Of a DNA stretch of 64,000 nucleotides, positions 8,114 through 52,834 are shown in pieces; the stretch's first letter is position 1; the number at the start of each line of letters is the position of its first letter. Below the pieces are notes generated by a model. That model was given only the letters and a program-made list of their open reading frames with translations, ran no database searches and was not told where the DNA came from. Location: assembly GCA_049852185.1 (NCBI GenBank), contig CP187540.1. The stretch is one strand, 5' to 3'. This stretch comes from Methanocaldococcus sp. 28A. GTDB taxonomy: Archaea > AGJL01 > Methanococci > Methanococcales > Methanocaldococcaceae. The position numbers and the translations under genes are program-made.

Positions 8114-8773
8114 ATGACCGGATGCGGTTCTTGTGGCAAGATTATCAAAAATATTGAAAAGAAATATTACAACAAATTAAAAGAAAAAGGCATTGTGTTG
8201 GTTGGTGGGGCTGTAAATTTAGATGATGAAGAAGAAGTTAAAAAAATAAAGGAAATTAGAAAAAATGCAAAGATATTAATTGCTGTTGGTAGCTGTGCTG
8301 TAAGTGGAGGTTTCCAAAGAATGCTTATTGGCTTAGAGAATGGATTCCCACAAAGATTTGTTAGAGTTGGAGATGTTGTTAAGGTAGATTATGCAATAAT
8401 TGGCTGCCCACCAGATGAAAAAGAGGTTGAAAAAGTAGTGAGAGCAGTTATTGAAAAAGATACTGCAATAGTTGATTCATATTTAATACTAAAACCTTAC
8501 GAAATTATTGCTGGAAAACCAATTATTGATGCTTACATGAAAGTTAATGAGGTTTTATTAACTTCAAATAAAGAGTTATGTTTAGGATGTGATGATAAAC
8601 CAATAAATGATGAGTTCTGCACAGGTTGTGGGACATGCGTTGCTAAATGTCCAGCAAACGCTTTAACAATTGATGAAAAGCCAAAAGTCAATATAAGTAA
8701 GTGTATTAAGTGCGGTACTTGTTTCTTTAACTGTATAAGAGTAAAAGAGGCACTACTAAGCGAAGCGAGGTAG
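8114..8773 (+). CDS. FrhG-like small subunit with 2[4Fe-4S] domain; last codons supplied by repeat element
   Basis: GCGSC, GSCAVSGG, IGCPP, CTGCGTCVAKCP, CIKCGTCFFNC. Confidence 0.8.
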   Translation: MTGCGSCGKIIKNIEKKYYNKLKEKGIVLVGGAVNLDDEEEVKKIKEIRKNAKILIAVGSCAVSGGFQRMLIGLENGFPQRFVRVGDVVKVDYAIIGCPPDEKEVEKVVRAVIEKDTAIVDSYLILKPYEIIAGKPIIDAYMKVNEVLLTSNKELCLGCDDKPINDEFCTGCGTCVAKCPANALTIDEKPKVNISKCIKCGTCFFNCIRVKEALLSEAR

Positions 8774-8810
8774 TGCATCCTAAGTCTCCCAATAGGGCAA
8801 AGCCCTATGG
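8747..8810 (-). repeat. Double-hairpin element (Z cap hairpin + Y hairpin)
   Basis: Reverse complement ccatagggctttgccctattgg-gagactta-ggatgcactac...agtagtgcctc is homologous to 10401-10465. Confidence 0.85.
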
Positions 8811-8863
8811 GTGTTGGAACTTGCTTCTTCAACTGTATAAGAGTTAGAGGTGATGATAAATGA
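8811..8863 (+). pseudogene. Orphan second copy of the frhG-like 3' end (GTCFFNCIRVRGDDK*)
   Basis: Matches 8710-8743 with third-position differences; its stop overlaps the next ATG (ATGA). Confidence 0.85.
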
Positions 8864-9645
8864 AATATCTCTCAGTAAAATCAAAATTAAATATTGAAGC
8901 ACAAGATGGGGGATTCACAACAACCTTTTTAGGTTATTGTTTAGAGAGTGGAATATTAGATGCAGTAGTAGTAGTTAAAGATAAAAATTGGAAACCAATT
9001 GCCTATTTAGCTACAAACACAGTTGAATTATTAAAATCACCAAAAAGTAAATACTCTATCTCACCAAACAACAAGTTGTTAGAATATGCAACTGAAAATT
9101 ATGATAAAGTTGGATTGGTTGGTTTGCCTTGCCATATATTAGGAGGATTGCAGTTTGATTTAGCTTTAAAAGTTGGTTTATTCTGTACAAAAAATTTCCA
9201 CTATGAAACAATAAAAAACATTATAAAAGAGAGATTTGGACTTGATATGGATGAAGTTGTTAAAATGAATATCACAAAAGGAAAATTTGTTGTTGAAACC
9301 TTAAAAAGTACTGATTTAGTCCATTCAGAAAAAGTAATTTATGAAATTCCAATAAAAGAGATTGAAAAGTTCTGCAACTTAGGATGTAGATTATGCACAG
9401 ATTTCTCAGCAAAATACGCAGATGTATCAGTTGGAAGTGTTAGTAGTGAAAATGGATGGAATACTATAATTATAAGAAACAAGAAAGTTGAAGATATAAT
9501 AAATGAAATGGTTGAGAAGGGATTAATTGAAGTTAAAGAGGCTGTTGATATTAAAGCAGTTGAAAAATTAGAAAACATTAAAAAGAAAAATGAAGAAATT
9601 AACAAATGTTCTGCATACTTTGCTGTATGCCCTGCTCTATTTTAA
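8860..9645 (+). CDS. FrhB-family F420-binding subunit
   Basis: AQDGG, VGLPCH, GLFC, GCRLCTDFSA..ADVSVGS. Confidence 0.87.
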   Translation: MKYLSVKSKLNIEAQDGGFTTTFLGYCLESGILDAVVVVKDKNWKPIAYLATNTVELLKSPKSKYSISPNNKLLEYATENYDKVGLVGLPCHILGGLQFDLALKVGLFCTKNFHYETIKNIIKERFGLDMDEVVKMNITKGKFVVETLKSTDLVHSEKVIYEIPIKEIEKFCNLGCRLCTDFSAKYADVSVGSVSSENGWNTIIIRNKKVEDIINEMVEKGLIEVKEAVDIKAVEKLENIKKKNEEINKCSAYFAVCPALF

Positions 9646-9736
9646 AATGGCCCCTTATTTTTATTTATCCAACCGTAAGAGATATAAATTTAATAAAATT
9701 TTTTACTTTTTTATAATTTTATTTGGAGATGAAAGT

Positions 9737-10357
9737 ATGCTAATTAAAAAAATTGAAGCACTAAAAAATTCACAGATTAAAGATATTATTGATAAAAGAA
9801 TCCAAGAATTTAAATCTTTTAAAAATAAATCCAATGAAGAATGGTTTAAAGAACTATGCTTTTGCATATTAACAGCTAATTTTACAGCTGAGGGTGGAAT
9901 AAAAATACAGAAAGAAATAGGGGATGGATTTTTAACACTTCCAAGAGAAGAGTTAGAAGAAAAATTAAAAAATTTGGGGCATAGATTTTATAGAAAAAGA
10001 GCAGAATATATTGTTTTAGCTCGAAGATTTAAAAATATCAAAGATATCGTTGAGAGTTTTGAAAATGAAAAGATAGCGAGAGAGTTTTTAGTGAGAAATA
10101 TAAAAGGGATTGGATACAAGGAAGCAAGCCACTTTTTGAGAAATGTTGGCTATGACGATATTGCCATAATTGACAGACATATACTAAGAGAGCTTTATGA
10201 AAACAACTACATTGATGAGATTCCAAAAACATTGAGTAGGAAAAAATATTTAAAAATTGAAAATATATTGAGAGCTATTGGAGAGGAGGTAGATTTAAAA
10301 CTCTCTGAATTAGATTTGTATATATGGTATTTAAGGACTGGAAAAGTTTTAAAGTGA
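9737..10357 (+). CDS. ogg: 8-oxoguanine DNA glycosylase/AP lyase (Ogg2)
   Basis: ELCFCILTAN, GIGYKEASHFLRN, IIDRH, C-terminal KVLK. Confidence 0.93.
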   Translation: MLIKKIEALKNSQIKDIIDKRIQEFKSFKNKSNEEWFKELCFCILTANFTAEGGIKIQKEIGDGFLTLPREELEEKLKNLGHRFYRKRAEYIVLARRFKNIKDIVESFENEKIAREFLVRNIKGIGYKEASHFLRNVGYDDIAIIDRHILRELYENNYIDEIPKTLSRKKYLKIENILRAIGEEVDLKLSELDLYIWYLRTGKVLK

Positions 10358-10361
10358 GATT

Positions 10362-10400
10362 ATGGTAAATGTTGAAAGAATTAGCATATCATTCTCTAAA
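10362..10400 (+). pseudogene. Orphan copy of the first 13 codons of the downstream NikR-like gene
   Basis: MVNVERISISFSK, 36/39 nt identical to 10489-10527; all 3 differences synonymous. Confidence 0.9.
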
Positions 10401-10465
10401 CCATAGGGCCTCGCCCTATTGGTATACTCGGGATGCGTTGATTAGCTTTAGCTAATCAACGCCTC
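10401..10465 (+). repeat. Double-hairpin element (Z cap hairpin + Y hairpin)
   Basis: ccatagggc-ctc-gccctattgg tatactcg ggatgcgttgattagc-ttta-gctaatcaacgcctc. Confidence 0.88.
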
Positions 10466-10488
10466 TTAAGTAGAGATAGGTGAAATAA

Positions 10489-10899
10489 ATGGTAAACGTT
10501 GAAAGAATTAGCATATCATTTTCAAAATTTCTTTTAAAAGAGATAGATGATGTTGTTAAAAAGAAGGGATATTCAAGTAGAAGTGAATTAATAAGAGACG
10601 CTGTGAGAAAACATATCCTAGAAAGTAACTCATTATTAGATAAAGAAGGAAACATTAGTGGGATAATTATTGTTGTCTATACACCAACAAAAGAGTCTAT
10701 GGAAAAAATGAGTAAGTTGTATTTTGAATATAACGATATAGTTAAATCATTAAATCAATCCTACATAACAACTTCATGTGGTAAAAATAAGAAGGTAGAG
10801 ATTTTTGTTGTTGAAGGGAATGCAAAGAGAATATCTGAATTTTACGATGGAATTTCAAAGATTGATGGAAAGATTTATGATAAAGTTATTGTATTCTAA
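10489..10899 (+). CDS. NikR-like ribbon-helix-helix regulator
   Basis: ERISIS...GYSSRSELIRDAVR RHH plus ACT-like C-domain; canonical His-rich Ni site not evident. Confidence 0.8.
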   Translation: MVNVERISISFSKFLLKEIDDVVKKKGYSSRSELIRDAVRKHILESNSLLDKEGNISGIIIVVYTPTKESMEKMSKLYFEYNDIVKSLNQSYITTSCGKNKKVEIFVVEGNAKRISEFYDGISKIDGKIYDKVIVF

Positions 10900-11062
10900 C
10901 GTAAGATAAATTAATAATAATTTGTAATAATTTGTCATTCAATTCTTTATTACCTTTTTATTGTTATTTCATAATAATTATAACAAATTTACATCAGTAA
11001 AGATATAATAATTATATCCATTTTGAGTTATATTTTGGCAAAAAAAGGTTTCTGGTTTCTCG

Positions 11063-11076
11063 GGAAATAGGTTTTC
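11063..11076 (+). promoter_or_regulatory. Possible NrpR operator upstream of nitrate transporter relic
   Basis: GGAA-ATAGGT-TTTC, one mismatch to GGAA-N6-TTCC. Confidence 0.4.
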
Positions 11077-11087
11077 TATTATTATAA

Positions 11088-11361
11088 ATGGGATAATAAT
11101 TATAAAAAGAAAGTCAGTATTATTGAAGCCCTTAAAAGTGGAGATATAAAAACATTGATTGCATCGTTATTATATTTTGATACAGGATTCCTGGTTTGGT
11201 TATTATTTGAACCTGCTTTAGGTTTATTTATTGCACAGGACCTGGGTTTATCACCTGCTGAGAAAGGATTTATGATTGCAGTTCCAATCCTCGCTGCGAC
11301 ACTATTTAGGATTCTTTTTGGTTACATTTACCAGGCAATAAATGGAAAATACATTGCAATG
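11088..11361 (+). pseudogene. narK: Truncated NarK/NasA-type MFS nitrate/nitrite transporter (N-terminal ~90 codons)
   Basis: LKSGDIKTLIASLLYFDTGFLVWLLF..LGLFIAQDLGLSPAEKGFMIAVPILAATLFRILFG resembles NasA N-terminus; ATG 11088 is out of frame by one G; truncated at a hairpin element. Confidence 0.8.
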
Positions 11362-11449
11362 AGGGCCCTCTATTGCTATACTCCTTAACACCTCTACTAA
11401 AGGAAGAGGAGTAAATTTTGGTTATACCAATAAGGGCGGAGCCCTATGG
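11358..11449. repeat. Composite hairpin element (degenerate Z + W-like hairpin + inverted Z)
   Basis: agggccctctattgctatac...aacacctctactaaaggaagaggagtaa...tataccaataagggcggagccctatgg. Confidence 0.7.
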
Positions 11450-11507
11450 TTCGAGACACCCCCGTATGCTTGCATTTTTTATTAATTAAAATAAAATTCT
11501 GTTCTTA

Positions 11508-12164
11508 TTATAAAACTCTTCCTCTAACTTTATTTATGTCAAATTTTGCTGTTTCTGCAATAGCCATAACTGCCAAAACTCCTGCTTGTAATGGGTCTCC
11601 AACAACTAAATCAGCTACTTTTGGAACAGAGCCAAACATCTTTAAGCTTATTACTGGAATACCTGTCTTTTCTTTCAACTCTTTAACTGCTTCAGTTATC
11701 TTTCCCCCCATTAGAGAGCCAGCTAAAACTAAAATCCCTACTCTTGGTAAGGTTGCTACAGCTCTAACAGCCTCATATAAATTTTCTTCACCTACAATAG
11801 GAAGAGTGTCAACGCTAATCCTTTCCCCTCTTATATTATGTCTATCTGCTTCACTTATAGCTCCTCTTGCAACTTCAGCAACTTGAGCTCCTCCACCAAT
11901 AATAATAACTCTCTTACCATAAATCTTTTTTAATGAGCTGTGAATCTCAAAGCTTTTTACATATTCACAGCTTTCTATTCTTTTTTTTAATTCATTAATA
12001 TCTTTAATTCCTTCAACTTCCATATAAATAAATCCAATTTTGCCATCATCTTTAATAAATTGTTGAGTATAAGTTATATTTCCACCCAATTCAGATAAAA
12101 TGCCAGTAAGTTTATGTAAAACTCCAACTTTATTCTCAGCCTCTATGCTTATTCCTATCTCCAT
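11508..12164 (-). CDS. ACT-domain protein (MJ1458/DUF5612-like)
   Basis: N-terminal ACT (ENKVGVLHKLTG), GGGAQVAEVARGAISEADRHNIRGERISVDT. Confidence 0.8.
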   Translation of the reverse strand: MEIGISIEAENKVGVLHKLTGILSELGGNITYTQQFIKDDGKIGFIYMEVEGIKDINELKKRIESCEYVKSFEIHSSLKKIYGKRVIIIGGGAQVAEVARGAISEADRHNIRGERISVDTLPIVGEENLYEAVRAVATLPRVGILVLAGSLMGGKITEAVKELKEKTGIPVISLKMFGSVPKVADLVVGDPLQAGVLAVMAIAETAKFDINKVRGRVL

Positions 12165-12173
12165 ACTCTCACA

Positions 12174-13457
12174 TTAAATTTTTCTAATTCTTCTTCTAAC
12201 AGCTTCAGCATGCCCCAACAATCCTTCAGCTTCAGCTAATGTGATAACAATATCAGCAATATTTTTTAAACTCTCCTTATCTAATTTTTGGAATGTTATT
12301 TTCTTTAAAAATGTCTCTACATTTAAACCAGAACTCATTCTTGCAAATTGTGAAGTTGGCAAAACATGGTTTGTTCCAGAAGCATAATCTCCAACAGGAA
12401 CTGGGCTATACTCACCTAAAAACACACTTCCAGCATGTTTAATTTTATTTAAAACTTCTTCTTGGTTTTTGGTTAATATTTCCAAATGCTCTGGGGCATA
12501 TTTATTTGAGAACTCAATACACTCTTCTAAATCACCAATCAATATGGCAGAGTTTTCCAAAGCTTTTAATATAATTTCTTTTCTTTCAGCTTTTTCTATC
12601 TCTTCAAATATTTTATTTTTAATTTCTTCTGCCTTCTTTTCAGATGTTGTGGTTATTATGCAAGAGGCATTAGGGTCGTGCTCAGCTTGGGCTATAAAAT
12701 CTAAAGCAACAAACTCTGCATTAGCTGTTTCATCAGCTATAATTAAAACTTCTGAAGGACCTGCTAAAAAATCTATTGCCACATCTCCATAAACCATTTT
12801 TTTGGCTGTTGTTACATATATATTTCCAGGACCTACAATAATATCAACTTTTGGAATAGTTTCTGTTCCATATGCTAAAGCTCCTATAGCTTGAACTCCT
12901 CCAACTTTAAAAATGGCATCAACTCCTACGATGTCTCCAGCTATCAATGTAGCTGGATTTCCCTTCCCTTCTTTTGTTGGTGGGGAAGTTATATATATTT
13001 CTTCACATCCAGCAACCTTTGCAGGGATTGTAGTCATTAAAACAGTTGAAGGATAAAATGCCCTTCCTCCAGGAACATAGCATCCAACTTTTTCTATTGC
13101 TCTAACGACCTGTCCTAAAATTATTCCGTTATTTTTAACCTCTAAGTCTTTAATTTGCTCCATTTGCTTTTTGTGGAAGAAGTAAATATTTTCCTTAGCT
13201 TTTTCTATTGCTTCAATAATTTTGTAATCTACTAAATTATATGCCTCTTTTATCTCCTCTTCACTAACTTTAAAATCTTCTATTTCAACACCATCAAACT
13301 TTTTTGTGTAATATTTTAAAGCTTCATCTCCCTTCTTTTTAACATCCTTCAAAATCTCCATTACTGTTGGTAAAATTTCTTCAAAGTTTGTTTTATTTCT
13401 ATTAATTATTTTTTCCTCCTCTTCCTTAGATAAATCCCTAATCTTTTTAATTATCAT
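12174..13457 (-). CDS. hisD: Histidinol dehydrogenase
   Basis: YVPGG, GPGNIYV, AGPSE, QAEHD, APEHL. Confidence 0.97.
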   Translation of the reverse strand: MIIKKIRDLSKEEEEKIINRNKTNFEEILPTVMEILKDVKKKGDEALKYYTKKFDGVEIEDFKVSEEEIKEAYNLVDYKIIEAIEKAKENIYFFHKKQMEQIKDLEVKNNGIILGQVVRAIEKVGCYVPGGRAFYPSTVLMTTIPAKVAGCEEIYITSPPTKEGKGNPATLIAGDIVGVDAIFKVGGVQAIGALAYGTETIPKVDIIVGPGNIYVTTAKKMVYGDVAIDFLAGPSEVLIIADETANAEFVALDFIAQAEHDPNASCIITTTSEKKAEEIKNKIFEEIEKAERKEIILKALENSAILIGDLEECIEFSNKYAPEHLEILTKNQEEVLNKIKHAGSVFLGEYSPVPVGDYASGTNHVLPTSQFARMSSGLNVETFLKKITFQKLDKESLKNIADIVITLAEAEGLLGHAEAVRRRIRKI

Positions 13458-13715
13458 AATTTATCACCAAATTTTGATTAACAAACTTTAAATAGGACTT
13501 TTACACTTTATATAATAATAAGGAAAATATAATGCCAAGAGCATCAATACTGTTCGAATGCAAGAGAACTGATTGAGGTTATAGGCTTCAAAGTTATAGA
13601 TATTTAAATTGCATTCAGACCGTTATACCTTTCAATATTTATTAGAGAAAGTTCTAATTTAATATATATTTAGTGCTTATAATATTTACTATTAAGAAAA
13701 ATTTAAGGTGAGAAG

Positions 13716-14630
13716 ATGATACTCTTTGAGTGGGGGACTTATAACGCTTTATCAACATTAAAACAGGCAGCATTATTAGGAACAAGAATTACAGAAATTC
13801 CACCAGCAGTGTTATCAAGAAGATTACCAACTGGATACTATGAGAGTTATAAAAAGTTAAGTAAGGAATATTTTACATCAATCTTAGCTCATGGCCCATA
13901 TTACAGCTTAACATCAGAGAAAGGGTTAAATGCTCATCTTTCAGCCATAGAAAAAGCTACACTATGTGGGGCTGAGATTTATAATTATCATCTTGGTAAA
14001 AGAGTGGGGGATGATTTGAACTACCACTTAGAAGTCTTAAAAAAATTCAGTGAAGTTAATAGTGAGATGATTTACTCTCCAGAGCCAGCGACAAATATTG
14101 GCGAGTTTGGAACATTGGATGAAGTTGAAGAGTTAGTAAAAGCAGCTAAAGAGGAAGATATAAAAGTCATTCCATCTTTGCAGTTAGAAAACATCTTCTT
14201 AAATGAATTAGGAGTTTATGAAAAGGATGATTTAGATGAAGCAGCAGAAAAGGCTGATGTTGATTGGGGGCTAAAAATCTTTAAAAGAATGGATAAAATA
14301 TCAGATTATATAATGCATTTCAGATTTTCACAGGTTATAGGGCTAAAATATGGAAAGAGATTTTATAAGAAAAGAGTTCCTTTAGGAAAAGGTTATCCTC
14401 CAATTGAACCATTAACTGAAGCTTTATCTATATACTTAGTTGAGAACGCTACAAGAGGGGGCTTTAAGAAAGTTCTATTTGTCTATACTGGATTGCCAGA
14501 GGTTAAGTATAGAGATTTAATTGATTTATATGCAATGATTATGAAGAAATCTGTAGATAAGTTAATGAGCAAAGAGAGCCAGGTTGAATATGGAGAGTTC
14601 TATAAGGTTATGAGTTCAGAGGAAGAATAA
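13716..14630 (+). CDS. Conserved hypothetical TIM-barrel protein (endonuclease IV/xylose isomerase-like)
   Basis: HGPYY, YHLG, EFGTLDE; RBS GGTGA. Confidence 0.6.
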   Translation: MILFEWGTYNALSTLKQAALLGTRITEIPPAVLSRRLPTGYYESYKKLSKEYFTSILAHGPYYSLTSEKGLNAHLSAIEKATLCGAEIYNYHLGKRVGDDLNYHLEVLKKFSEVNSEMIYSPEPATNIGEFGTLDEVEELVKAAKEEDIKVIPSLQLENIFLNELGVYEKDDLDEAAEKADVDWGLKIFKRMDKISDYIMHFRFSQVIGLKYGKRFYKKRVPLGKGYPPIEPLTEALSIYLVENATRGGFKKVLFVYTGLPEVKYRDLIDLYAMIMKKSVDKLMSKESQVEYGEFYKVMSSEEE

Positions 14631-14722
14631 ATTATAATCTATTTTTTATTTTTTTATTTTTAATTTTTATTTTTACACTTTATATTGGTGTTCTCATTTT
14701 TAAATAAAAAAAGGTAGAGAAT

Positions 14723-15391
14723 ATGATATGTTTGCCAGTAATTGAAAATAATGTGGAAGACGCAATAAAAACAGCTGAGAAGTATTTAGAAATAGTAGAT
14801 ATTGTTGAATTTAGGATAGATATGCTTAAAGAAGTTAGTGAAAATGATATAGAAAAATTTACCCAATATCCTTGCATAATAACAGTTAGAGCGGATTGGG
14901 AAGGGGGTTATTGGAAAAAATCTAATGAAGAAAGATTAAATCTAATAAAAAAGGCAATTGAATGTAATGCTAAATTTGTAGATATTGAGTTAAAAGAAGA
15001 GAAGAATAAAGAACTTGTAAAATTTAGAGATGAGATTGGTTCAAAAACACAAATTATAATTTCATATCATGATTTTGAAAAAACACCTTCAAAAGATAAA
15101 TTAATTGAGATAATTGAAAAAGCTCTTAGCATTGGAGATATAGCAAAATTTGCAGCTATGGCAAATAGTAAAGAAGATATTATCAATATTTTGGATGTGA
15201 TAAACAAATATTCAGGAAAAATTATTGGCATTGGAATGGGAGAAAAAGGAAAACTAACAAGAATCTTAGGGGTTTATTTTGGTTCAATATTAACCTTTGC
15301 CTCTTATAAAGGTAAAAGCTCAGCTCCTGGGCAGATTGATATTTACACTCTAAAAGAGATTTGGAAACTTATGGATTTAAAAGCATATTAA
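14723..15391 (+). CDS. aroD: Type I 3-dehydroquinate dehydratase
   Basis: [27 protein letters not shown]. Confidence 0.95.
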
Positions 15392-15947
15392 GCATAGTTT
15401 CAGCCAATTGTTTATGCTCTTTATTGCCAACTTTTTTAATTATTGAAAAATATTTTTTCATATCTTCCAGCATATTTTTTTTCTCATTTTCATCAATTTT
15501 TATACTTTTATTTATTAATCTTGAGTAAATAACTGCCATCTCAACTAACAAGCCATCTGCTCTATTATATGGCTGTGGAATATTGTTTAAATATATTCTA
15601 TCTATTTCCTCTCCTTCTAAAATCATTAATTTATTTTTTCCAAATTTATCTTCTCTATCAACAAATTCTCTTTTTATAACTTTGTAAAGTATAACATAAT
15701 AAGAATTTTTTAAGTAAGGGATGTTGTTATAGTAAAGATATTCATCATTATCATCTAAAACTGCCTTTGTTATCTCTATTGGTGGAACTACATTAACTGA
15801 AAAATAATCTTCAGTTAAAAGATTTTCATAAGTATGAGAGCCAGAAAAAAGATGCATAATAACTTTTTTATCTTTAAAATAAACACCTATTGGAGCTTTG
15901 TTATCTTTATCATTTCTTCTTGTTGCTACAACCACTTCATTTATCAT
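15369..15947 (-). CDS. DUF447-family protein
   Basis: [22 protein letters not shown]. Confidence 0.7.
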
Positions 15948-16729: not shown

Positions 16730-16890
16730 ATTCTCACATAAATTTATATAACATAATAATTTTATAATTGATAATTATCCATATAGTTCGAAATTGGACA
16801 TTGTCGGAAATATTAAACTGATAGTAATACCTGGTTGTGCATAATTTAGTGTATATCCATAGATAAAGAATAAAAGATATAATGATGGTT

Positions 16891-18450: not shown

Positions 18451-18510
18451 AATCCCACCAAAAACTTTATTATCATATTTTACCTATTCGATGAGATATT
18501 ATAAAAATTT

Positions 18511-19620
18511 TTATAGAAAAATTTTTTCTATGAAGCTATAGACTCTAAACGATATTAGCATCCCAGATATTAATAGAGAAAGTAATGAGATGATTTTTAT
18601 TTTTCCTGAAGATTCTTTGAACACAGCCAAATAAAGCAAAAAATAAGCTATTAGTGTAAAGAACATGCTTATATCCACCAATGTTTTTGCATCAAAAATT
18701 AATAGAATTATAACTAATAGAGTATTTAAGATAACTCCATAATGTGGAATTTCTTTTCTCAATTTTGTAAATATTTGAGGAAATATTTTATCCCTTCCCA
18801 TCCCATAAGGCATATAAGATAATGTAAATAAAACGCTAAACGCACAGCTTGATATAATAATCAATACTCCAACAAACAAAAATAAGTTATCCCCGATTAA
18901 TATCCTTAATATCTCATTCAAGTTGTTTGTTTTTACATTTAAAGATATTACAGTTAAAGAAAATAATAAATAAAGAATTCCAATAATAAAAGTTCCTATT
19001 AATAGCCCATAAGCTATAGCTTTTTGATTTTTAAATGCAGATAATGGCATTGTTATGCCTTCCCAGCCAGTAGCTGCCCATAATCCAAAATAAATTGTTA
19101 GAATAGTATTTTTTAAATTAAACTCTCCAATGCTACCAATTTTTATGCCGTTTGAAAATACTATATACAAAATAATCGTTATCGTTAAAATCCCAAAGAT
19201 TCTGACAAAGTTTCCTACAATTTTTAAACCACACAATATTAAAGCTGTTAAAACAATAATTAAGAGCAATCCAACATAAGGAACATTAAATACTGTATTA
19301 AAAATTATCTCAAAGAATGACACAACTCCAGATAGGGCAAAAACTCCAGAGAGCCACAATATATAAGCTGAAAAAACTCCAATCACTCTCCCTAAAATTT
19401 TCATTACAAACTTATAAACTCCTCCACTTTCACTAATCTTTGTTGAAGCATAAGCAAAAGGAGAAGCCATAATTAAAGATACAAATATTAGTAGAATCCA
19501 ACCCCATACTATAGATTTCCCAAACATCATATATGTCAAAGGAGATAAAACAAAAATCCCTCCACCAACAATAGAAGTTATTGTTAAAAATACAGCATCT
19601 TTAAGAGTTAAATGTCCCAT
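18511..19620 (-). CDS. APC-family amino acid permease
   Basis: IVGGGIF, SGGVY, GWE; many TM segments. Confidence 0.8.
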   Translation of the reverse strand: MGHLTLKDAVFLTITSIVGGGIFVLSPLTYMMFGKSIVWGWILLIFVSLIMASPFAYASTKISESGGVYKFVMKILGRVIGVFSAYILWLSGVFALSGVVSFFEIIFNTVFNVPYVGLLLIIVLTALILCGLKIVGNFVRIFGILTITIILYIVFSNGIKIGSIGEFNLKNTILTIYFGLWAATGWEGITMPLSAFKNQKAIAYGLLIGTFIIGILYLLFSLTVISLNVKTNNLNEILRILIGDNLFLFVGVLIIISSCAFSVLFTLSYMPYGMGRDKIFPQIFTKLRKEIPHYGVILNTLLVIILLIFDAKTLVDISMFFTLIAYFLLYLAVFKESSGKIKIISLLSLLISGMLISFRVYSFIEKIFL

Positions 19621-19728
19621 AACTAACACCAATTATTGTTAATAAATATTTAATGTATAGCTTAAAGCAAAAATATTTAATACATTCTTTTATAATTATC
19701 TTTATTCAAAAGTTGATTGAGGGATAAG

Positions 19729-21591
19729 ATGAAGATGCTATTAATCCACTCTGATTATTTAGAGTTTGAGGCAAAACAAAAAACTAAAATTGCAGAAGAA
19801 ACTGAGAATTTAAAAGGTAAATTAGATGAGTGTTTAGCTTGCTTTATTGCAGTGGAGAGAGAGGATGAAAATAACCCAAAAGGAACTGCTATAGGGGCAG
19901 TAGAAGAGATTGAGAAAGTTGCTAATCAGTTAAAAGTTAATAATATTGTTGTTTATCCTTATGCCCATTTATCAAGTGATTTATCTTCACCTGAAACAGC
20001 TATAAAGGTTTTGAAAGAGATTGAGAATATTTTGAAAGAAAGGGGCTATAATGTGTTAAGGGCTCCATTTGGATGGTATAAAGCATTTAAAATTAGTTGT
20101 AAAGGCCATCCATTAAGTGAGTTATCAAGAAAGATTGTAGCTAAGGAAGAGAAGAAAGAGAAAGGAGAAGAATCTAAGTTTTATTTATTAAATCCAGAAA
20201 CAGAAGAAGCTGTTGAGCTAAGTGAAGAAAATATTAATATAATAAAAGATGAAGAGCTTTTGGCATTAGCTAAACATGAATTGGGAATTAAAGAAAATAA
20301 AGAAAGAGAAGAACCACCACATGTAAAGTTTATCAAAGAAAAAGATATTTGCAGTTATGAAGAGGCATCAGACCCTGGGCACTTTAGATGGTATCCAAAA
20401 GGTAAGTTGATTAGAGATTTATTAGCAGATTATGTCTATAACATGGTAGTTAGATTAGGAGCTATGCCAGTAGAAACACCAATTATGTATGATTTAGGAA
20501 ATCCTGCTATTAGAGAGCATGCTGATAAATTTGGTGAGAGGCAGTATAGGTTTAGACAAGGAAATAGGGAGTTAATGTTAAGATTTGCGGCATGTTTTGG
20601 GCAGTTTATGATGAAAAAAGACATGTATTTGTTGCCAAGATATTTGCCTTTAAAACTTTATGAGCTATCAACATACAGCTTTAGATATGAGCAAAGAGGG
20701 GAGTTAGTAGGTTTAAAGAGGTTGAGAGCATTTACAATGCCAGATATGCATACTGTCTGCTTAGACATAAAACAAGCAATGGAAGAGTTTGAAAAACAAT
20801 TTTGGGAGTGTTTAAAGACAGGAGAGGATTTGAATTTAAGTTATTCAGTAATCTTTAGATTCACAAAAGATTTCTTTGATGAGCATAGAGATTGGTTCTT
20901 TAAGATAGCTAAGGAATACAAAAATAAATACGGAAAAGATGTTATCTTAGAAATTCTTCCTAAAAGAAAACACTATTGGGTTGGTAAGGTAGATATTGCT
21001 GTAATAGATAGCTTAGGAAGACCTATTGAAAATCCAACTGTTCAAATAGATGTTGAAAGTGCTAAAAGGTTTGACATAAAAGTGCATACAAATGAAGGAG
21101 AAGTATATCCAATAATATTGCATTGCTCTCCTACTGGCTCAATTGAGAGAGTCTTATGTGGTTTGTTAGAAAAAGCAGCTATAGAAGCTAAAGAAGGAAA
21201 AGCTCCAATGCTTCCTGTTTGGCTCTCCCCTATACAAGTTAGAGTTATTCCAGTAGCTGATAGACATTATGACTATGCTTTAAAAGTTGCTGAAAAGCTG
21301 AGAGAAAATAATATTAGAGCAGATTTTGATGATAGAGAAGATAGGGTAAGCAAAAAGATTAGAAATGCAGGAAGTGAATGGATACCTTATGTTGTTGTTA
21401 TTGGAGATGAAGAAATGGAGTCTGGAAAATTAACAGTAACAATTAGAGAAAAATCAACTTTAAAAAAGCCTTATAAAGAGAAGATGACATTAGATGAGTT
21501 GATTGAGAGAATCAAAAAAGAAACTGCTGGATATCCATATAGACCTTTACCATTACCAATAAGATGTTCATTACAGCCAAAGTTCCATTAA
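19729..21591 (+). CDS. thrS: Threonyl-tRNA synthetase (archaeal editing domain)
   Basis: LLIHSD, YPYAHLS, FRYEQRGEL, MPDMH. Confidence 0.97.
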   Translation: MKMLLIHSDYLEFEAKQKTKIAEETENLKGKLDECLACFIAVEREDENNPKGTAIGAVEEIEKVANQLKVNNIVVYPYAHLSSDLSSPETAIKVLKEIENILKERGYNVLRAPFGWYKAFKISCKGHPLSELSRKIVAKEEKKEKGEESKFYLLNPETEEAVELSEENINIIKDEELLALAKHELGIKENKEREEPPHVKFIKEKDICSYEEASDPGHFRWYPKGKLIRDLLADYVYNMVVRLGAMPVETPIMYDLGNPAIREHADKFGERQYRFRQGNRELMLRFAACFGQFMMKKDMYLLPRYLPLKLYELSTYSFRYEQRGELVGLKRLRAFTMPDMHTVCLDIKQAMEEFEKQFWECLKTGEDLNLSYSVIFRFTKDFFDEHRDWFFKIAKEYKNKYGKDVILEILPKRKHYWVGKVDIAVIDSLGRPIENPTVQIDVESAKRFDIKVHTNEGEVYPIILHCSPTGSIERVLCGLLEKAAIEAKEGKAPMLPVWLSPIQVRVIPVADRHYDYALKVAEKLRENNIRADFDDREDRVSKKIRNAGSEWIPYVVVIGDEEMESGKLTVTIREKSTLKKPYKEKMTLDELIERIKKETAGYPYRPLPLPIRCSLQPKFH

Positions 21592-21703
21592 AAATTTCAT
21601 AACAACAATAATATCTTTTTCATGCATGTATGAAAAAATATATAAATAGCAATCCATATTTTTAAATAATTATCTACTGCTATTTTTTATATAATCTCAT
21701 TAT

Positions 21704-21780
21704 TATAGGACTTTCGCAGTGTGTATATTAACTATGGAAATTAGGTGCCTTAAAACATTAATTCCTGCAAAAGTCCTATA
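21704..21780. mobile_element. MITE family A copy
   Basis: TIR tataggactttcgcag / ctgcaaaagtcctata. Confidence 0.8.
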
Positions 21781-21822
21781 TTATATAAACTAATAAATTT
21801 AAAGTCATTAAGCTTTTTTATT

Positions 21823-21908
21823 ATAGGACTTTCACAGGAATGAATATAACAATGAACTTTGATGCCCTTTGGGCATCTAAGAGAATATATAAACTGTGAA
21901 AGTCCTAT
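21823..21908. mobile_element. MITE family A copy
   Basis: TIR ataggactttcacag / ctgtgaaagtcctat; internal gatgccc-ttt-gggcatc hairpin. Confidence 0.82.
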
Positions 21909-21930
21909 TACAATCATTTTGGGGGAGAAT

Positions 21931-24213
21931 ATGATAGTAAAATGTCCAATTTGTGATGGTACTGGAAAAAAGGTAGTCAAATATAAAACATGCCCTGTAT
22001 GTGAAGGAACTGGATTTATAGATGAATTTTCACCAAAGCAACATATGAAAAGAGTTTCTAAGAGAGCAAACTATGACTTAGATTATGGAGAAATAGAATG
22101 TCCAAAGTGTAAAGGAACAGGAAAAGTTCCAATTTATGCAAAATGTGATTTTTGTGGTGGTAGTGGAAAAGTAGTTAAATGTGATAGATGTGGAGCTGTG
22201 ATTGGTAGATATCCTGACTTTAAAGATAGAACATTGTGTGATAAATGTTTAAAAGAAGAGGAAGAGAGGAAGAAAGGATTAAGAAATGTATATGTGTTTG
22301 ATGAATTAGCTACATTTTACGATGTTGAGCCTGGTAAATTCTATAAAGGAGTTGTTACAAGAATTGAAAAATATGGGGCTTTTATTAACTTAAATGAGCA
22401 AGTTAGAGGGCTTTTAAGACCAAGAGATAGGATAAGCTTAAGATTAGAGAATTTAAATGTTGGAGATGAAATAATAGTTCAGGCAATAGATGTAAGACCT
22501 GAAAAAAGAGAGATAGACTTTAAATACATTCCATTAACAACCTATGATTTAGTTAAATATGAAAAAGAAGTTCCTCTCTCTAATATAAAGGATATCTCTC
22601 AAAACTTAGTCGAGATGAGAGACCAGGTTGTGCATATAAGAGGAGAGGTAGTTCAAATAGTTCAAACTCCTGGACCAACAGTATTTACAATAACCGATGG
22701 AACTGACTTTGCTTGGGTAGCTGCTTTAGAAATAGCTGGTTTGAGAGCTCATCCCGATGTTAAAGTTGGAGATATAGTTGATGTTATTGGAAGAGTTACA
22801 ATAAGAGATGGAAGATTACAGATTGAGAGGATAAAACTCAATAAGTTAGTAGGTGAAGAGGCAGAAGAAATTAAGAAAAAGATAGAGGAAGAAATTGATA
22901 GAAGGGCAGAGCCTGCTAAGAATATACCATTCTTAGTTAAGAGTGAAGTTTTAGAGAGATTGAGACCAAAAATGGTGGATGTTGCTAAGAGAATTAGGAA
23001 GGCAGTTTTGGATGGAAGACCAATAATTATTAGACATCACGCAGATACTGATGGTTACTGTGGAGGAATTGCGTTAGAAAAGGCCATATTACCAATAATT
23101 GATAAATTTGCCATAGATGTTGATGCAATATGGCATTTCTTTAAGAGAAGACCTTCAAAGGCTCCATTCTATGAGTTGGAAGATGTAACAAAGGATTTGG
23201 TATTCTCTATAGAAGATGCCCTAAAGTTTGGGCAGAAATTGCCTTTAATTGTATTAATTGATAATGGAAGTACTGATGAAGATATTCCAGCTATATCCAA
23301 AGCTAAAGCCTATGGTATAGAGGTTATAGTTATAGACCACCACTTCCCTGGAGAGGTCGTTGATGGTAGAGTAGAAGTTGACGACTACGTAGATGCCCAT
23401 GTTAATCCTTATTTAGTTGGTGGAGATAGCAACTTAACTGCTGGTGTATTAGGAACTGAAATAGCGAGAATGATAAATCCAGAAGTAGAAGACGAGATAA
23501 AACACCTTCCAGGAATAGCGGTTGTTGGAGACCATGCTAAGGGAGAGGAGGCAGAGCAGTATATAAAAATAGCCCTTGATAGATTAAATGAATTTAGTAA
23601 AAAATATGGTAAGGGAAGAACCTATGATAGAGAGTATTTAGAGAAAATAGCTCTATGTATGGATTTTGAGGCATTTTACTTAAGATTCATGGATGGTAAG
23701 GGGATTGTTGATGATATATTGGCAACAAATATAAAAGAGTTTGGAAGACATGAGAAGTTAATAGATATATTGTATGAGCAGGCAATGAAGATGGTTGAAA
23801 GACAGATGAAAGCTGTAATTCCCGCTCTAAAAACAGAGTTCTTAGAGAATGGAATTATATTAAATACTTTAGATGTTGAAAAATTTGCTCACAAATTTAC
23901 ATTCCCAGCTCCAGGAAAAACCACTGGATTTGCTCATGACTATATTGTCCAAAAATATGGTGAGGATAAGCCAATTATAACTCTTTCCTATGGTCCAGAC
24001 TTTGGAGTTGTTAGAGCAACAGATGCAGTTCATGAAAAGTATAACTTCAATTTAAACTTAATAGTTGAGCAGTTAATGGAAGAAATTCCTGAAGCATCAA
24101 TAGATGGAGGAGGACATGAGTGTGCTGGTAGCTTAAAATTTGTTGAAGGTTTGAGAGATAAGGTAATAAATAGATTTATAGAAATTATTAAAAGTTTAAA
24201 GCCAAAAGAGTAA
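21931..24213 (+). CDS. RecJ-like DHH protein with DnaJ-type Zn finger, S1 and OB domains
   Basis: CxxCxGxG repeats, HHADTDG, DHH, GGGH. Confidence 0.88.
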   Translation: MIVKCPICDGTGKKVVKYKTCPVCEGTGFIDEFSPKQHMKRVSKRANYDLDYGEIECPKCKGTGKVPIYAKCDFCGGSGKVVKCDRCGAVIGRYPDFKDRTLCDKCLKEEEERKKGLRNVYVFDELATFYDVEPGKFYKGVVTRIEKYGAFINLNEQVRGLLRPRDRISLRLENLNVGDEIIVQAIDVRPEKREIDFKYIPLTTYDLVKYEKEVPLSNIKDISQNLVEMRDQVVHIRGEVVQIVQTPGPTVFTITDGTDFAWVAALEIAGLRAHPDVKVGDIVDVIGRVTIRDGRLQIERIKLNKLVGEEAEEIKKKIEEEIDRRAEPAKNIPFLVKSEVLERLRPKMVDVAKRIRKAVLDGRPIIIRHHADTDGYCGGIALEKAILPIIDKFAIDVDAIWHFFKRRPSKAPFYELEDVTKDLVFSIEDALKFGQKLPLIVLIDNGSTDEDIPAISKAKAYGIEVIVIDHHFPGEVVDGRVEVDDYVDAHVNPYLVGGDSNLTAGVLGTEIARMINPEVEDEIKHLPGIAVVGDHAKGEEAEQYIKIALDRLNEFSKKYGKGRTYDREYLEKIALCMDFEAFYLRFMDGKGIVDDILATNIKEFGRHEKLIDILYEQAMKMVERQMKAVIPALKTEFLENGIILNTLDVEKFAHKFTFPAPGKTTGFAHDYIVQKYGEDKPIITLSYGPDFGVVRATDAVHEKYNFNLNLIVEQLMEEIPEASIDGGGHECAGSLKFVEGLRDKVINRFIEIIKSLKPKE

Positions 24214-24235
24214 TTAAAAAATAAAAATAACTCTT

Positions 24236-24667
24236 TTAGATTTTTTTGCTCATTTCATATAAGAAGATAGATAAATTACCTAAAGCTCCAATCTCATTTT
24301 CAACAATGTATCTTCCTAATCCTTTTTCTAACTCTAATTTTGTAAATCCTGTTGAAGCTCCACAGAAAACAACTAAATCATTTTCTCCAATTTCATTAAA
24401 ATCTAATTTTTCCTCACAAATATTTTTGTTGCCTATTAAAAACACTTTCTCAGGTCTTAAAACTTCTATAGCATCATCCAACTCTTCAAAGAATAAAACA
24501 TTTTTTCCTAATTTGTATGCCATTTTATGCAATGTAGGAATTCCACTTTGAGCAGCTGATGCTGTTGCTTTTGTAACAACTATTGTATTGACATCAAATC
24601 CATATGCAATTCTTCCAAACTCTTCTACCTGCTTAGAACTGTATGTGTTATGCAAGCAAATAAACAT
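24236..24667 (-). CDS. DUF2122 / SPOUT-like protein
   Basis: LHN..S, SAAQSGIP, GFTKLEL. Confidence 0.6.
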   Translation of the reverse strand: MFICLHNTYSSKQVEEFGRIAYGFDVNTIVVTKATASAAQSGIPTLHKMAYKLGKNVLFFEELDDAIEVLRPEKVFLIGNKNICEEKLDFNEIGENDLVVFCGASTGFTKLELEKGLGRYIVENEIGALGNLSIFLYEMSKKI

Positions 24668-24746
24668 AACCTCTCACCTTTTTAGTTTTTTAGTCTTTTA
24701 TTATTACAAGACAGATTATTTATTCTAAATTACTTTCTAAACTACT

Positions 24747-24809
24747 TTATTTTAAGTTTTCTTTAACTACCTTAGCTATAGCTTTACTCAAAGCTACAGG
24801 AACACTCTC
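24747..24809 (-). pseudogene. Orphan second copy of the DNA methyltransferase 3' end (ESVPVALSKAIAKVVKENLK*)
   Basis: Aligns to 24878-24937 (ESVPVALSRAIAREIKNNL*); frame intact. Confidence 0.85.
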
Positions 24810-24813
24810 CTCC

Positions 24814-24877
24814 GAACCTTTTAGTAAAAGCTTCACTAAAATATAACACCTCCTCGCTTACGCTCGGAGGTGTAACT
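24814..24877 (+). repeat. Double-hairpin element (X cap hairpin + W hairpin)
   Basis: gaaccttttagtaaaagcttc actaaaatata acacctcctcgcttacgctcggaggtgt; X also at 52775. Confidence 0.8.
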
Positions 24878-25966
24878 TTATAAATTATTTTTAATTTCTC
24901 GTGCTATAGCTCTACTCAAAGCTACAGGAACACTTTCTCCTATCTGATTATAACAGCTTCTTATTCCCCCAGCAAATAGGTGATAATCAGGATAACTCAT
25001 CAACCTTGCCTGTTCTCTTGGTGTTAATAATCTATCTTCATAAGGATGGATAAAGAATCTCTTACCCATAACTGTCTCAGCTAATTTTAGAGGATGTAAT
25101 CTTATGTAATTTCCTAACCTTCTATTAGCCCCTTTGAAATAGATAAATGCATCCCCCCAACCTAATCTATGAACTCTCTTCCTAAATCTTGCAGGTAGAG
25201 CGGCAAATTCATGATTTGGAATATCTCTACCTTTATACATTAAATCTCCTATAGCCTCAATAACAGTTTTTGGCTGAGTTTTTTCTGGATTAATTTCTAT
25301 GTTTGAGACAAAGACTCTCCTTCTAACAGATGGATTTCCATAATCCTCTGCTTTTAATGTGTTGAAATAGACATTTTCATAACCAATTTCTCTAAACTCT
25401 TTTATTATTTCTCCTCTAACCTCTTTAATTCCAGGAACATTTTCCATAACAAATATTTTTGGCTGTAAGTCCCCAACAATCCTTATATACTCTAAAACTA
25501 ATCTTCCAGTTTCATCTTTATATAATCTATCATAAGGATTTTTCTCTCTTTTTGGATTAGCTCCTGTATATCCTTCACAAGGCGGACCTCCAATAATAAC
25601 ATCTACTTTTTTATTTTTGATGAACTTTTTTATCTCAAGTGAATGAATTTCTCTAATATCATCATTAATAACAACTGGATTTAGTTTTTCAGTTTTTTTA
25701 TTTAAAGTTCCCAATTTTTTTAACCACTTTATATCTTCCTCCTCAAAAGGAAATTTAAATGAGTATATCCCAACATAACCCTTTAATTCTTTCAATTTGA
25801 ATTCTCCAGGTCTTACTTTTTCATATATTCTACCATTAAAATTTAATGCATAAGAAAAAGCAGCATCTTCCTCTATTTCAATAGCCACTAATGGCTCAAA
25901 ACCCACATCTACAAACCCTCTTGAAAATCCCCCACATCCACAAAATAAATCAATAAATTTCAACAT
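24878..25966 (-). CDS. dcm: C5-cytosine DNA methyltransferase
   Basis: DLFCGCGG, GGPPCEG, ENV, R.R, QIGESVP. Confidence 0.92.
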   Translation of the reverse strand: MLKFIDLFCGCGGFSRGFVDVGFEPLVAIEIEEDAAFSYALNFNGRIYEKVRPGEFKLKELKGYVGIYSFKFPFEEEDIKWLKKLGTLNKKTEKLNPVVINDDIREIHSLEIKKFIKNKKVDVIIGGPPCEGYTGANPKREKNPYDRLYKDETGRLVLEYIRIVGDLQPKIFVMENVPGIKEVRGEIIKEFREIGYENVYFNTLKAEDYGNPSVRRRVFVSNIEINPEKTQPKTVIEAIGDLMYKGRDIPNHEFAALPARFRKRVHRLGWGDAFIYFKGANRRLGNYIRLHPLKLAETVMGKRFFIHPYEDRLLTPREQARLMSYPDYHLFAGGIRSCYNQIGESVPVALSRAIAREIKNNL

Positions 25967-26048
25967 TATCACCAAAAATAAAATGTTATTTAAAAAATAA
26001 AGTAACGCTTAAAAATTTTTAATTGAAGGGTAAAAAAGCTATAATAAT

Positions 26049-29917: not shown

Positions 29918-29993
29918 GCGGCCTTGGTGTAGCCTGGTAACACACGGGCCTGCCACGCCCGGACCCCGGGTTCAAATCCCGGAGGCCGCACCA
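29918..29993 (+). tRNA. tRNA-Gly(GCC)
   Basis: GCGGCCT/AGGCCGC acceptor stem, cgggc-ctGCCac-gcccg arm, TTCAAAT, encoded CCA. Confidence 0.97.
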
Positions 29994-30027
29994 CTGGCTT
30001 TAATTAGCCAGGGCTTGATTTGAACAT

Positions 30028-30103
30028 GCGCCGGTGGTGTAGCCTGGTATCACTCTGGCCTTCCAAGCCAGCGACCCGGGTTCAAATCCCGGCCGGCGCA
30101 CCA
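30028..30103 (+). tRNA. tRNA-Gly(TCC)
   Basis: GCGCCGG/CCGGCGC acceptor stem, ctggc-ctTCCaa-gccag arm, encoded CCA. Confidence 0.97.
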
Positions 30104-52774: not shown

Positions 52775-52834
52775 GAAACTTTTAGTAAAAGTTTCATCAA
52801 AACGGATGCATTGCTTCCTAAAGGAAGTAATGCC
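52775..52834 (+). repeat. Double-hairpin element (X cap hairpin + Y hairpin)
   Basis: gaaacttttagtaaaagtttc atcaaaac ggatgcattgcttcc-taaa-ggaagtaatgcc. Confidence 0.78.

Follow-up and report, generated by a model that had tools for sequence, protein, structure and literature searches.

Results

Elements and duplicated gene ends in the window

The window, a 64,000-nucleotide stretch of contig CP187540.1 from Methanocaldococcus sp. 28A (G000), contains three loci at which one end of a gene is present twice, as imperfect direct copies on either side of a 64-69 nt double hairpin, all three as described in the initial annotation. The genes concerned encode an FrhG-like protein with Oxidored_q6 and Fer4 domains, NikR and Dcm. 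Each element is a two-hairpin unit, typically composed of a cap hairpin (Z or X) and a second hairpin (W, Y or another), and the layout runs from outside through copy A, the cap, the second hairpin and copy B into the gene body. The copy beside the second hairpin keeps the gene intact, while a truncated, dead copy sits against the cap. Folded as single-stranded DNA, the three elements were equalled by none of 200 shuffles. The elements belong to the MJRE kind of hairpin repeat, being modular, GC-rich and non-coding; their modules form 67 clusters in this genome, and the inserts are conserved hairpins of 60-330 nt that carry no ORF. Among the matches listed, those to the element only all fall in genomes of genus g1, and the named ones are Methanocaldococcus records. 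At some loci (L134, L094 and 776372 of G000) a W-end fragment is also found to the left of copy A.

At the FrhG-like gene, the working copy of the 3' end (8714-8747, + strand) lies beside the W hairpin, and its ORF (8114-8773) reads on into the element. The latter (8748-8811, - strand; fold z = -4.4) shows W-Z order on the + strand and is thus reversed relative to the element at nikR. The dead copy (8816-8849, +) adjoins the Z cap and runs into the frhB ribosome-binding site. The copies are 34 nt long and 85% identical, with 3/3 differences at third codon positions; all three are synonymous changes in the working copy, the dead copy having retained the ancestral letters. In relatives, the native C-terminus ends KEAL* or KEVV* and is followed by a spacer of 80-150 nt. 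Since the tail of the dead copy and this spacer were deleted in the G000 lineage, the native frhB ribosome-binding site is now read in frame. The suggestion that dead copies keep their original coupling to the neighbouring gene is therefore a deletion artefact at frhG, though it stands at nikR. In G010, a derived AGG is common to both frhG copies, a sign that one has converted the other.

At nikR, the dead copy comprises the first 13 codons (10362-10400, +), beside the Z cap and at their native position 4 nt after ogg; its stop is a TAG inside Z. Between the W hairpin of the Z-W element (10401-10469, +; fold z = -6.9) and the working start lies a tail (10470-10488, +) which supplies the ribosome-binding site and is similar to the leader that nikR natively has in G007; the empty sites in G011, G015 and G006 lack it. 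The working copy (10489-10527, +) begins the ORF at 10489-10899. These 39-nt copies are 92% identical and differ at third positions in 3/3 cases, as they do in 6/6 in the nikR of G001 by our own reading of the sequences. Further on, a cluster of modules without assigned strand (Z-like, Y, Z; 11361-11449) abuts a truncated MFS fragment (11155-11388), which had been taken for a Z end against a truncated narK. The hairpins do abut, but the fragment amounts to 77 aa with a weak Pfam match (E = 1.8e-5, below cut-off) and the site is not a duplication locus: the fragment has no second copy in the genome. The region has no synteny with G011 or G015.

At dcm, the X-Y element (24812-24877, +; fold z = -4.4) separates a dead copy of the 3' end beside the X cap (24750-24809, -) from the working copy (24878-24937, -; ORF 24878-25975). 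The copies, 60 nt long, are 80% identical; 5/12 differences are at third positions and the replacements are conservative. Across the three loci, the earlier description of non-identical copies with synonymous or mostly conservative differences is thus borne out. The dead copy retains the native tail AKVVKENLK*, as at the empty site of G011. The working gene ends in 8 codons (AREIKNNL*) that do not resemble the native dcm1 tail and come closer to that of the paralogue dcm2, a resemblance to be read against the modest similarity of the dcm1 tail to dcm2 (20-21/27 ungapped, in AT-rich sequence). The X junction is present in dcm1 of G000, G012, G001 and G007, and in dcm2 of G000, G011, G016, G001 and G008.

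Empty sites and origin of the duplication

Flank copies, defined by a flank-against-flank alignment score of at least 20, accompany 14 of the 67 module clusters in G000; among 1000 random sites this score has its 99th percentile at 19.5, and about 1% of random sites pass. Other Methanocaldococcus genomes have them at 22/36 Z-hairpin sites, compared with 16/997 random control positions. The duplication varies from 12 to 68 nt, and perfect examples of 43, 35 and 21 nt were found. Where relatives have an empty site (nikR, dcm, frhG, 1494736, 36056, 38948 and 776372), precisely one copy is present there, from which it follows that the duplication arrived with the insertion; together with the perfect examples, this indicates that host sequence itself can give rise to it. 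The closest relative, G011, with flanks 94-98% identical, is without 7 of the 10 insertions compared. The relatives compared are kin, and the loci are accordingly not fully independent.

These observations bear on three alternatives. An assembly artefact or strain chimera, in favour of which we found nothing, has a negligible chance of being correct, as several genomes assembled independently of one another, complete chromosomes among them, show the same arrangement of copy, element and copy at the homologous loci. In ectopic integration by Cas1-Cas2, the proteins of CRISPR adaptation, the stretch between two attack sites would be duplicated. The genome has many CRISPR arrays, and two Z elements lie inside CRISPR repeats with the repeat start duplicated (21 nt at 184656/184810 of G000; 28 nt in L092). 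However, homology-driven spread between repeats explains both cases equally well, the 12-68 nt duplications show no mode at the repeat lengths of 30 or 37 nt, and the inserts are conserved hairpins of 60-330 nt rather than spacers, so we consider this explanation very improbable. The third alternative is that a MITE simply inserted with a long target-site duplication and that the two copies have since done no more than decay in place, without exchange between lineages, the working copy being constrained and the dead copy neutral. Single-copy empty sites and perfect duplications speak for it, as does frhG, where all three synonymous changes lie in the working copy and the dead copy is ancestral. 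The polarity and sequence of the copies, described below, do not, and we regard decay alone as a poor candidate.

Polarity of the insertions and search for an enzyme

In other genomes, 18/22 loci (14 distinct loci) have the gene end in the copy away from the Z or X cap. A gene end was seen in the cap-side copy once, with a left-side overlap of 14 nt, and one ORF among the exceptions is probably spurious. Loci of G000 have the same polarity, and the claim that the cap adjoins the dead copy each time holds at 3/3 loci in the window. The event is asymmetric: the second-hairpin junction falls at the extremity of the gene, the cap junction at a variable point inside it. Thus, in dcm1 the cap junction differs between G006 and G000 while the other junction is fixed, and at a locus near 36 kb the same is true of G010 (33 nt) as compared with G000 and G007 (55 nt). 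Because the polarity is near absolute and the cap junction differs among genomes that share the other junction, the cap is probably the active cut-and-join end. Neither a symmetric staggered cut nor decay in place predicts this polarity.

Strict polarity, with a variable cap junction and a fixed junction opposite, is what would be expected of a one-ended graft, in which incoming DNA of a relative ends at the cap and is joined illegitimately by an HUH/Y1-type enzyme, while its other end is resolved by homologous recombination; the working copy would then be foreign and the dead copy native. In agreement with this, the working copies of dcm, nikR and the 36 kb locus have inner ends that look foreign. 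The existence of perfect duplications made from host sequence argues against it, and the HUH/Y1-type enzyme offered as an example in the initial annotation gains no support from our search. Y1_Tnp (PF01797) occurs in only 3/17 genomes of the genus (G000, G001 and G014) and elements are also found in genomes without it; TnpB occurs in 12/17, and neither tracks the elements. G009, which is 99% complete, has an element match and no match to Y1 or TnpB. Co-distribution with Y1/HUH genes, for which the initial annotation suggested looking, was thus not observed.

Codon positions, mosaics and shared junctions

Differences between the copies fall at third codon positions in 38/58 cases in this genome (p = 5.5e-7) and in 24/40 in an independent set, giving 62/98 for both together, where decay in place predicts by rough estimate about 44%. 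Changes specific to the dead copy, which decay in place would leave neutral, are themselves mostly at third positions (6/8 in a hand count over nikR, dcm and the 36 kb locus). On the explanation favoured below, the copies appear recoded because their differences mainly arose as substitutions in functional homologues.

At nikR, dcm and the 36 kb locus, the outer parts of the copies match the G011 allele and the inner, junction-proximal ends do not. The nikR mosaic reads AAT..TTC TCT in copy A and AAC..TTT TCA in copy B, against AAT..TTT TCA in G011. At 36 kb, copy A is G011-like on the left and copy B on the right; the inner ends carry 5 and 2 third-position changes, some of which match G015, G001 or G007. 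Inner ends in the state of other lineages or of a paralogue are again at odds with decay in place. The foreign-looking ends may reflect recent import or an old haplotype shielded from recombination, as both fit. The non-coding target at 1046738 has a cap-side copy with 3 changes in about 10 nt of a sequence invariant in 4 relatives, which may be due to junction mutagenesis as well as to import. At 776372, copy A has been converted to match copy B in G000 and not in G011.

Distant genomes and a paralogue (dcm1/dcm2) carry the same junctions, in a patchy distribution, indicating that sequence of a diverged homologue is present. At nikR, G000 and G001 have the cap junction in common down to two shared changes, despite different neighbouring genes, and shared derived bases of the cap-side copy likewise travel with the element between dcm1 and dcm2. 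Spread hence uses homology on both sides, contrary to the one-ended spread put forward initially; since donor-type bases in the cap-side copy would make at least the later spread two-sided, the one-ended graft is in our view unlikely. Of the related claim that both copies evolved under coding selection and that one came from a diverged relative, codon-aware differences in two sets sustain the former part, while the restriction of foreign sequence to one copy is not supported.

Mosaic breakpoints lie in the same interval of both copies at nikR and 36 kb, as would be produced by Campbell-type integration, in which a small circle or fragment with the element and the adjacent gene terminus enters an empty homologous site by a single crossover and thereby creates the duplication. 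Polarity would follow if capture always took place on the second-hairpin side, and the W-end fragments left of copy A would fit integration into an element-bearing allele. Nevertheless, an identical mosaic results if a broken empty site is repaired by synthesis-dependent strand annealing, and the precise cut at the cap that integration needs goes unexplained, leaving it with little probability, comparable to that of decay alone.

Discussion

In this study, we found hairpin elements of Methanocaldococcus to be flanked by long, polar and recoded duplications of gene ends. The explanation we favour, and consider reasonably probable, is that MJRE-like elements insert with an asymmetric long target duplication, followed by spread through homologous recombination, conversion and probable excision, with junction bases carried along. 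Insertion creates a direct repeat of 12-68 nt of target, and the resulting allele would behave like a homing allele without a nuclease of its own. Through homologous recombination, empty homologous sites of other lineages and of paralogues would acquire a copy of the element, as the mosaics support, and some 10-30 junction-proximal bases of both copies would travel with it. The two copies could convert each other, and could also recombine with each other and so excise the element.

A more far-reaching reading, which we put forward only tentatively, is that the elements are selfish DNA that patches the gene it enters: the founding event duplicates a gene terminus, the allele homes by break repair, and it can leave again. 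Repair synthesis or cleavage would stop at the cap (Z or X), a defined end that is joined illegitimately, the other side being joined by homology. Each founding event would duplicate the adjacent gene terminus and leave the gene working; in these polyploid archaea, break repair would then allow homing into empty orthologous or paralogous sites, with 10-30 foreign coding bases grafted on every occasion, and exit by recombination between the copies would leave a chimeric but intact gene end.

Compact archaeal genomes have almost no room for selfish DNA, and an element able to supply or generate a spare gene end can colonise termini without killing the gene. If the reading just outlined were true, it would describe a mobile-element lifestyle without an own transposase and a continuing supply of recoded gene ends. 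Polarity, variable long duplication and mosaics are testable handles on how archaeal hairpin repeats (MJRE, REP-like) move, on the amount of homologous exchange between Methanocaldococcus species and between paralogues, and on the rewriting of gene termini, ribosome-binding sites and stop codons. On the practical side, annotation of starts and stops in the genus will be misled by termini present twice and by genes that read through into hairpins.

Among known systems, the palindromic MJRE repeats of M. jannaschii, some of which are described as fused into protein genes without destroying them (Suyama, Lathe & Bork 2005, as described in PMC2229807), are alike by description in being short, GC-rich, palindromic, multi-copy, non-coding and of the same genus. 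Long polar terminus duplication, codon-aware divergence and spread between orthologues and paralogues are not known to belong to that description. MITE, REP/BIME, Correia and RPE repeats are similarly small, non-autonomous, strain-variable and often located at gene ends or in frame, and target duplications occur among them. A classical MITE, however, has a short duplication of fixed length, in contrast to 12-68 nt and a fixed orientation to the gene body here, and its ends are inverted repeats of each other, whereas Z and W, or X and Y, differ and are each self-complementary.

Derivation from IS200/IS605 (PATE or REP-RAYT) is not supported, as no target duplication is expected of it whereas long ones occur here, and as the Y1 transposase that should co-occur (PF01797) is confined to 3/17 genus genomes; in the junction sequences inspected, we saw by eye no conserved word of the tetra- or pentanucleotide type at Z or W junctions. 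A diversity-generating retroelement, with its template and variable repeats at the 3' end of a gene and a reverse transcriptase close by, does not fit either, since it changes template adenines only, at the first two codon positions, and the differences found here are mostly synonymous, at third positions and of several kinds. Target-primed insertion of the LINE type is alike in being an asymmetric two-step process with one junction at a preferred AT-rich site and the other at a varying distance, so that the duplication differs in length from case to case. The analogy is one of geometry alone; these elements have no poly-A and are not known to involve a reverse transcriptase.

Some integrative elements enter tRNA or protein genes at the 3' end and likewise keep the gene intact by supplying a slightly different replacement end, with the dead copy displaced to their far end, although they are of kilobase size, with an integrase and a fixed att core, compared with 60-330 nt and no gene here. 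Homing group I introns and inteins encode an endonuclease, whereas our elements carry none, are not spliced out, and duplicate rather than interrupt their target. Like them, our elements combine presence or absence at the same site with co-converted donor flanks; spread into empty homologous sites by recombinational repair, short donor flanks and a patchy distribution are features of both.

Hairpin elements and their flanking duplications

The window (G000:C1:640001-704000) lies in a host genome, G000, of 1.556 Mb with 30% G+C and many CRISPR arrays. Its three copy pairs, each around a two-hairpin element, are present as the initial annotation stated: at an FrhG-like subunit gene followed by frhB (copies at 8714 and 8816; 34 nt, 85% identical), at nikR, preceded by ogg (10362 and 10489; 39 nt, 92% identical), and at the gene for a Dcm methylase (24750 and 24878; 60 nt, 80% identical). 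A cap hairpin, Z or X, stands beside the duplicated, dead copy of the gene terminus, and a second hairpin, W or Y, beside the working copy that is joined to the gene body. Folded as single-stranded DNA, the three elements gave z = -4.4, -6.9 and -4.4, and equal folding was reached in 0/200 shuffles.

By motif scan, the four hairpin modules form 67 clusters in G000. When the 110 nt left of each cluster were aligned against the 110 nt on its right, with 1000 random sites as control, 14 of the 67 reached a score of 20 or more, against a 99th percentile of 19.5 for the random sites. Most of this signal comes from complete two-module units (Z+W 8/12, at a score of at least 16.5; X+Y 4/5). Solitary modules mostly have no flanking copies, and further solitary W and X modules of the window (18532-18563, 20362-20396 and 52775-52795) are without long flanking duplications. 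An unbiased scan for local direct repeats recovered the same loci together with a 333-nt element between 55-nt copies, and also returned a pair of neighbouring tRNA-like sequences separated by 41 nt, with 83% identity over 69 nt (window 29925-30103). The 333-nt element, outside the window at G000:C1:36111-36443 (locus L033, hereafter the 36 kb locus), holds a structured insert of ~260 nt in its Z hairpin loop; this insert recurs in G000 near 1425500, 216172, 1360567, 162223 and 1281717 as well as in the comparison genomes G005, G012 and G016, and has no Rfam match. Four element-bearing loci (15.9 kb), scanned against Rfam at E values up to 0.1, gave no known RNA family, the sole match being a chance one to a miRNA.

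With each species represented by one genome, a pattern scan found 51 stretches, 45 of them in Methanocaldococcus or unclassified Methanococci records. Among the comparison genomes, which are few and related, 22 of 36 evaluable Z sites lie between copies of 21-64 nt, the left one stopping at the Z terminus, compared with 16/997 random positions of those loci. Some of the counts given here come from inspecting alignments by eye. Homologous loci in independently assembled genomes carry the same structures, which rules out an assembly artefact. A search for read data gave a single run, a vent metagenome with 6% of the sampled words, and no RNA data.

The duplication arrived together with the insertion. 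Empty sites in relatives have the duplicated stretch once only, as seen for nikR in G011, G015, G006 and others, for dcm in G011, G010 and G005, for frhG in G007 and G019, at 1494736 in G011, at 776372 in G001 and G005, and at the 36 kb locus and 38948, where relatives have a single copy. The closest relative, G011, whose flanks are 94-98% identical to those of G000, is without 7 of the 10 G000 insertions compared, and several of the insertions are common to more distant genomes. Duplication lengths range from 12-18 nt (1046738) up to 68 nt, and none was detectable for the element at 1383890. At 1494736 both G000 copies are 43 nt long and identical, sharing letters absent from G011.

Polarity and the two junctions

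The fixed polarity first proposed from the window, with the second hairpin towards the gene body and the cap towards the dead copy, extends to other genomes. With each locus oriented Z left, the Z-distal copy contains a gene 3' or 5' end, with the gene body beyond, at 18 of 22 loci (14 distinct loci once homologues are merged); three of the remainder have no gene there and one is ambiguous. The Z-side copy holds a gene end once (L138, a 14-nt overlap), apart from one probably spurious ORF. The polarity in G000 is the same, and extends there to the X-only element at 254114. Were the cut symmetric and staggered and the orientation random, both neighbouring genes would be spared either way, so such a model does not predict this polarity. 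Selection acting through stop or start codons inside Z was likewise considered as its cause and set aside: of the three reading frames Z closes just one, and at L094 the frame continues through it.

In 11 of 13 3'-end cases, alignment of the working copy begins no more than 10 nt from the stop codon, in our opinion partly because donor-recipient homology stops at the gene extremity; on this view, the variable tails between second hairpin and working copy look like donor non-coding sequence. Inspected by eye, neither junction has an evident conserved target word; junctions are AT-rich, and TTTATAA-like words are frequent beside stop codons.

Comparison of homologous loci separates the two junctions further. 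At the window dcm (dcm1), G006 and G000 agree in the Y junction, and the X junction of G006 is ~20 nt shorter; at the 36 kb locus the W junction is common to G010, G000 and G007, with the Z junction at 33 nt in G010 versus 55 nt; and at the 1494 kb locus the Z junctions of G000 and of the G015/G001 pair lie 10 nt apart, the other junction being nearly constant, with W, Y or a third hairpin. From this mobile cap junction, together with the polarity, we infer that the cap is the active end. One cap junction can be paired with differing second hairpins (W, Y and a third, GGGGCT-type), as at the frhG locus in G008 (L028), G001 (L026) and G010 (L024) and at the 1494 kb locus in G015 and G001, so modules have been exchanged between elements.

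Origin of the differences between copies

Differences between the copies favour third codon positions. These take 38 of 58 differences in the coding columns of 12 G000 copy pairs (p = 5.5e-7 versus one third), 35 of the 58 being synonymous and 23 not, and 24 of 40 at 13 independent loci of other genomes (p = 4.9e-4); in the nikR pair of G001, read by eye, the figure is 6/6. In-place decay with a neutral dead copy would, on a rough estimate, place ~44% at third positions. DGR-like mutagenesis was rejected, the changes being synonymous and without adenine specificity.

Where the differences lie was examined against the single copy of G011 for nikR, the 36 kb locus and dcm: both copies are host-like in their outer parts and depart from the host type next to the junctions. 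For nikR the dead copy reads AAT...TTC TCT, the working copy AAC...TTT TCA and G011 AAT...TTT TCA. G011, G015 and G006 lack the 19-nt leader that precedes the working copy, and this leader resembles the one native to nikR in G007. G001 has a Z element at the same codon of nikR and a dead copy with the same two changes, among different neighbour genes. At the 36 kb locus, 5 third positions within the last 9 codons of the working copy depart from G011, and G015, G001 or G007 share some of these states; elsewhere the gene is 98% G011-like. A complementary pattern is seen in the dead copy. The dead dcm copy retains the native tail. No dcm1 allele seen resembles the working tail except that of G012, which has the whole 421-nt structure at 90% identity. 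In the paralogue, dcm2, of G000, G011, G016, G001 and G008, the same X-Y element occupies the corresponding position with the same cap junction, and the working dcm1 tail is somewhat nearer to dcm2 tails (20-21/27, ungapped) than to native dcm1 tails, which is modest evidence. These patterns, like the insertions missing from G011, are consistent with homologous recombination between orthologues and paralogues that transfers the element along with 10-30 nt of both inner ends or, equivalently, with old element-bearing haplotypes whose inner ends would have been shielded from exchange. At the dcm2 locus of G010 (L187), a lone X hairpin and a CRISPR-repeat-like remnant precede the 3' end, and the terminus is present only once; a simple insertion state or a deletion could account for this.

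The frhG insertion, common to G000, G011, G005, G008, G010 and G001, is old, and all three differences there are synonymous changes in the working copy. The dead copy was at first thought to keep its original coupling to frhB. Native frhG-like genes terminate in KEAL* or KEVV* and have a spacer after this end; in G000 the tail of the dead copy and the spacer have been lost by deletion, so that its apparent end, VRGDDK*, is an in-frame reading of the frhB ribosome-binding site. The narK reported beside hairpins is a truncated, weakly matching MFS remnant (window 11155-11388), unique in the genome and followed by three hairpin modules. It lies in the region right of nikR (window 10900-12400), which lacks synteny with G011 and G015; a rearrangement breakpoint is suggested by this arrangement.

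The two copies also interact. In G010 frhG a derived AGG is present in both, and in G011 the dead frhG copy acquired two letters of the working one. At 776372 the dead copy was overwritten by the working copy in G000, through a few bases of element tail, and not in G011. The single copy of G011 at the 36 kb locus resembles a dead-left/working-right chimera, matching what excision by recombination between copies is expected to leave; this reading is only suggestive, since one diagnostic letter is also in G006. Left of the dead copy at L134, L094 and G000:C1:776360-776372 lies a fragment of the W hairpin 3' end, up to 13 nt, which looks as if the duplicated unit began inside the element or conversion ran into it.

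Founding mechanism and relation to known systems

Among possible founding mechanisms, we rank first a cap-anchored, asymmetric event of insertion or repair, with later spread by recombination; one-ended graft and mini-circle variants come second, and plain duplication with in-place decay third.

The Y1/HUH partner initially proposed does not track the elements. Y1_Tnp occurs in 3 and TnpB in 12 of 17 genomes of the genus, both are also found in genera without elements, and G009 has an element match yet neither enzyme; over the 17 genomes and the other genera, no co-distribution of either with the elements was found. The only Y1 of G000, a 144-aa frame, sits beside TnpB-like frames in an IS200/IS605-type unit (G000:C1:829441-831249).

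Two elements lie inside CRISPR repeats. One, of Z type, interrupts the first repeat of an array (G000:C1:184656-184847), whose initial 21 nt are perfectly duplicated, and another Z-type element at L092 has the first 28 nt duplicated; both duplications begin at the repeat start. Ectopic integration by Cas1-Cas2, which these two elements brought to mind, was set aside because duplication lengths follow no ruler.

We found no description of the pattern in the literature searched, which included passages of PMC2229807, PMC12306157 and PMC6009581; the paper on MJRE, the palindromic repetitive elements reported from M. jannaschii, may mention flanking duplications.
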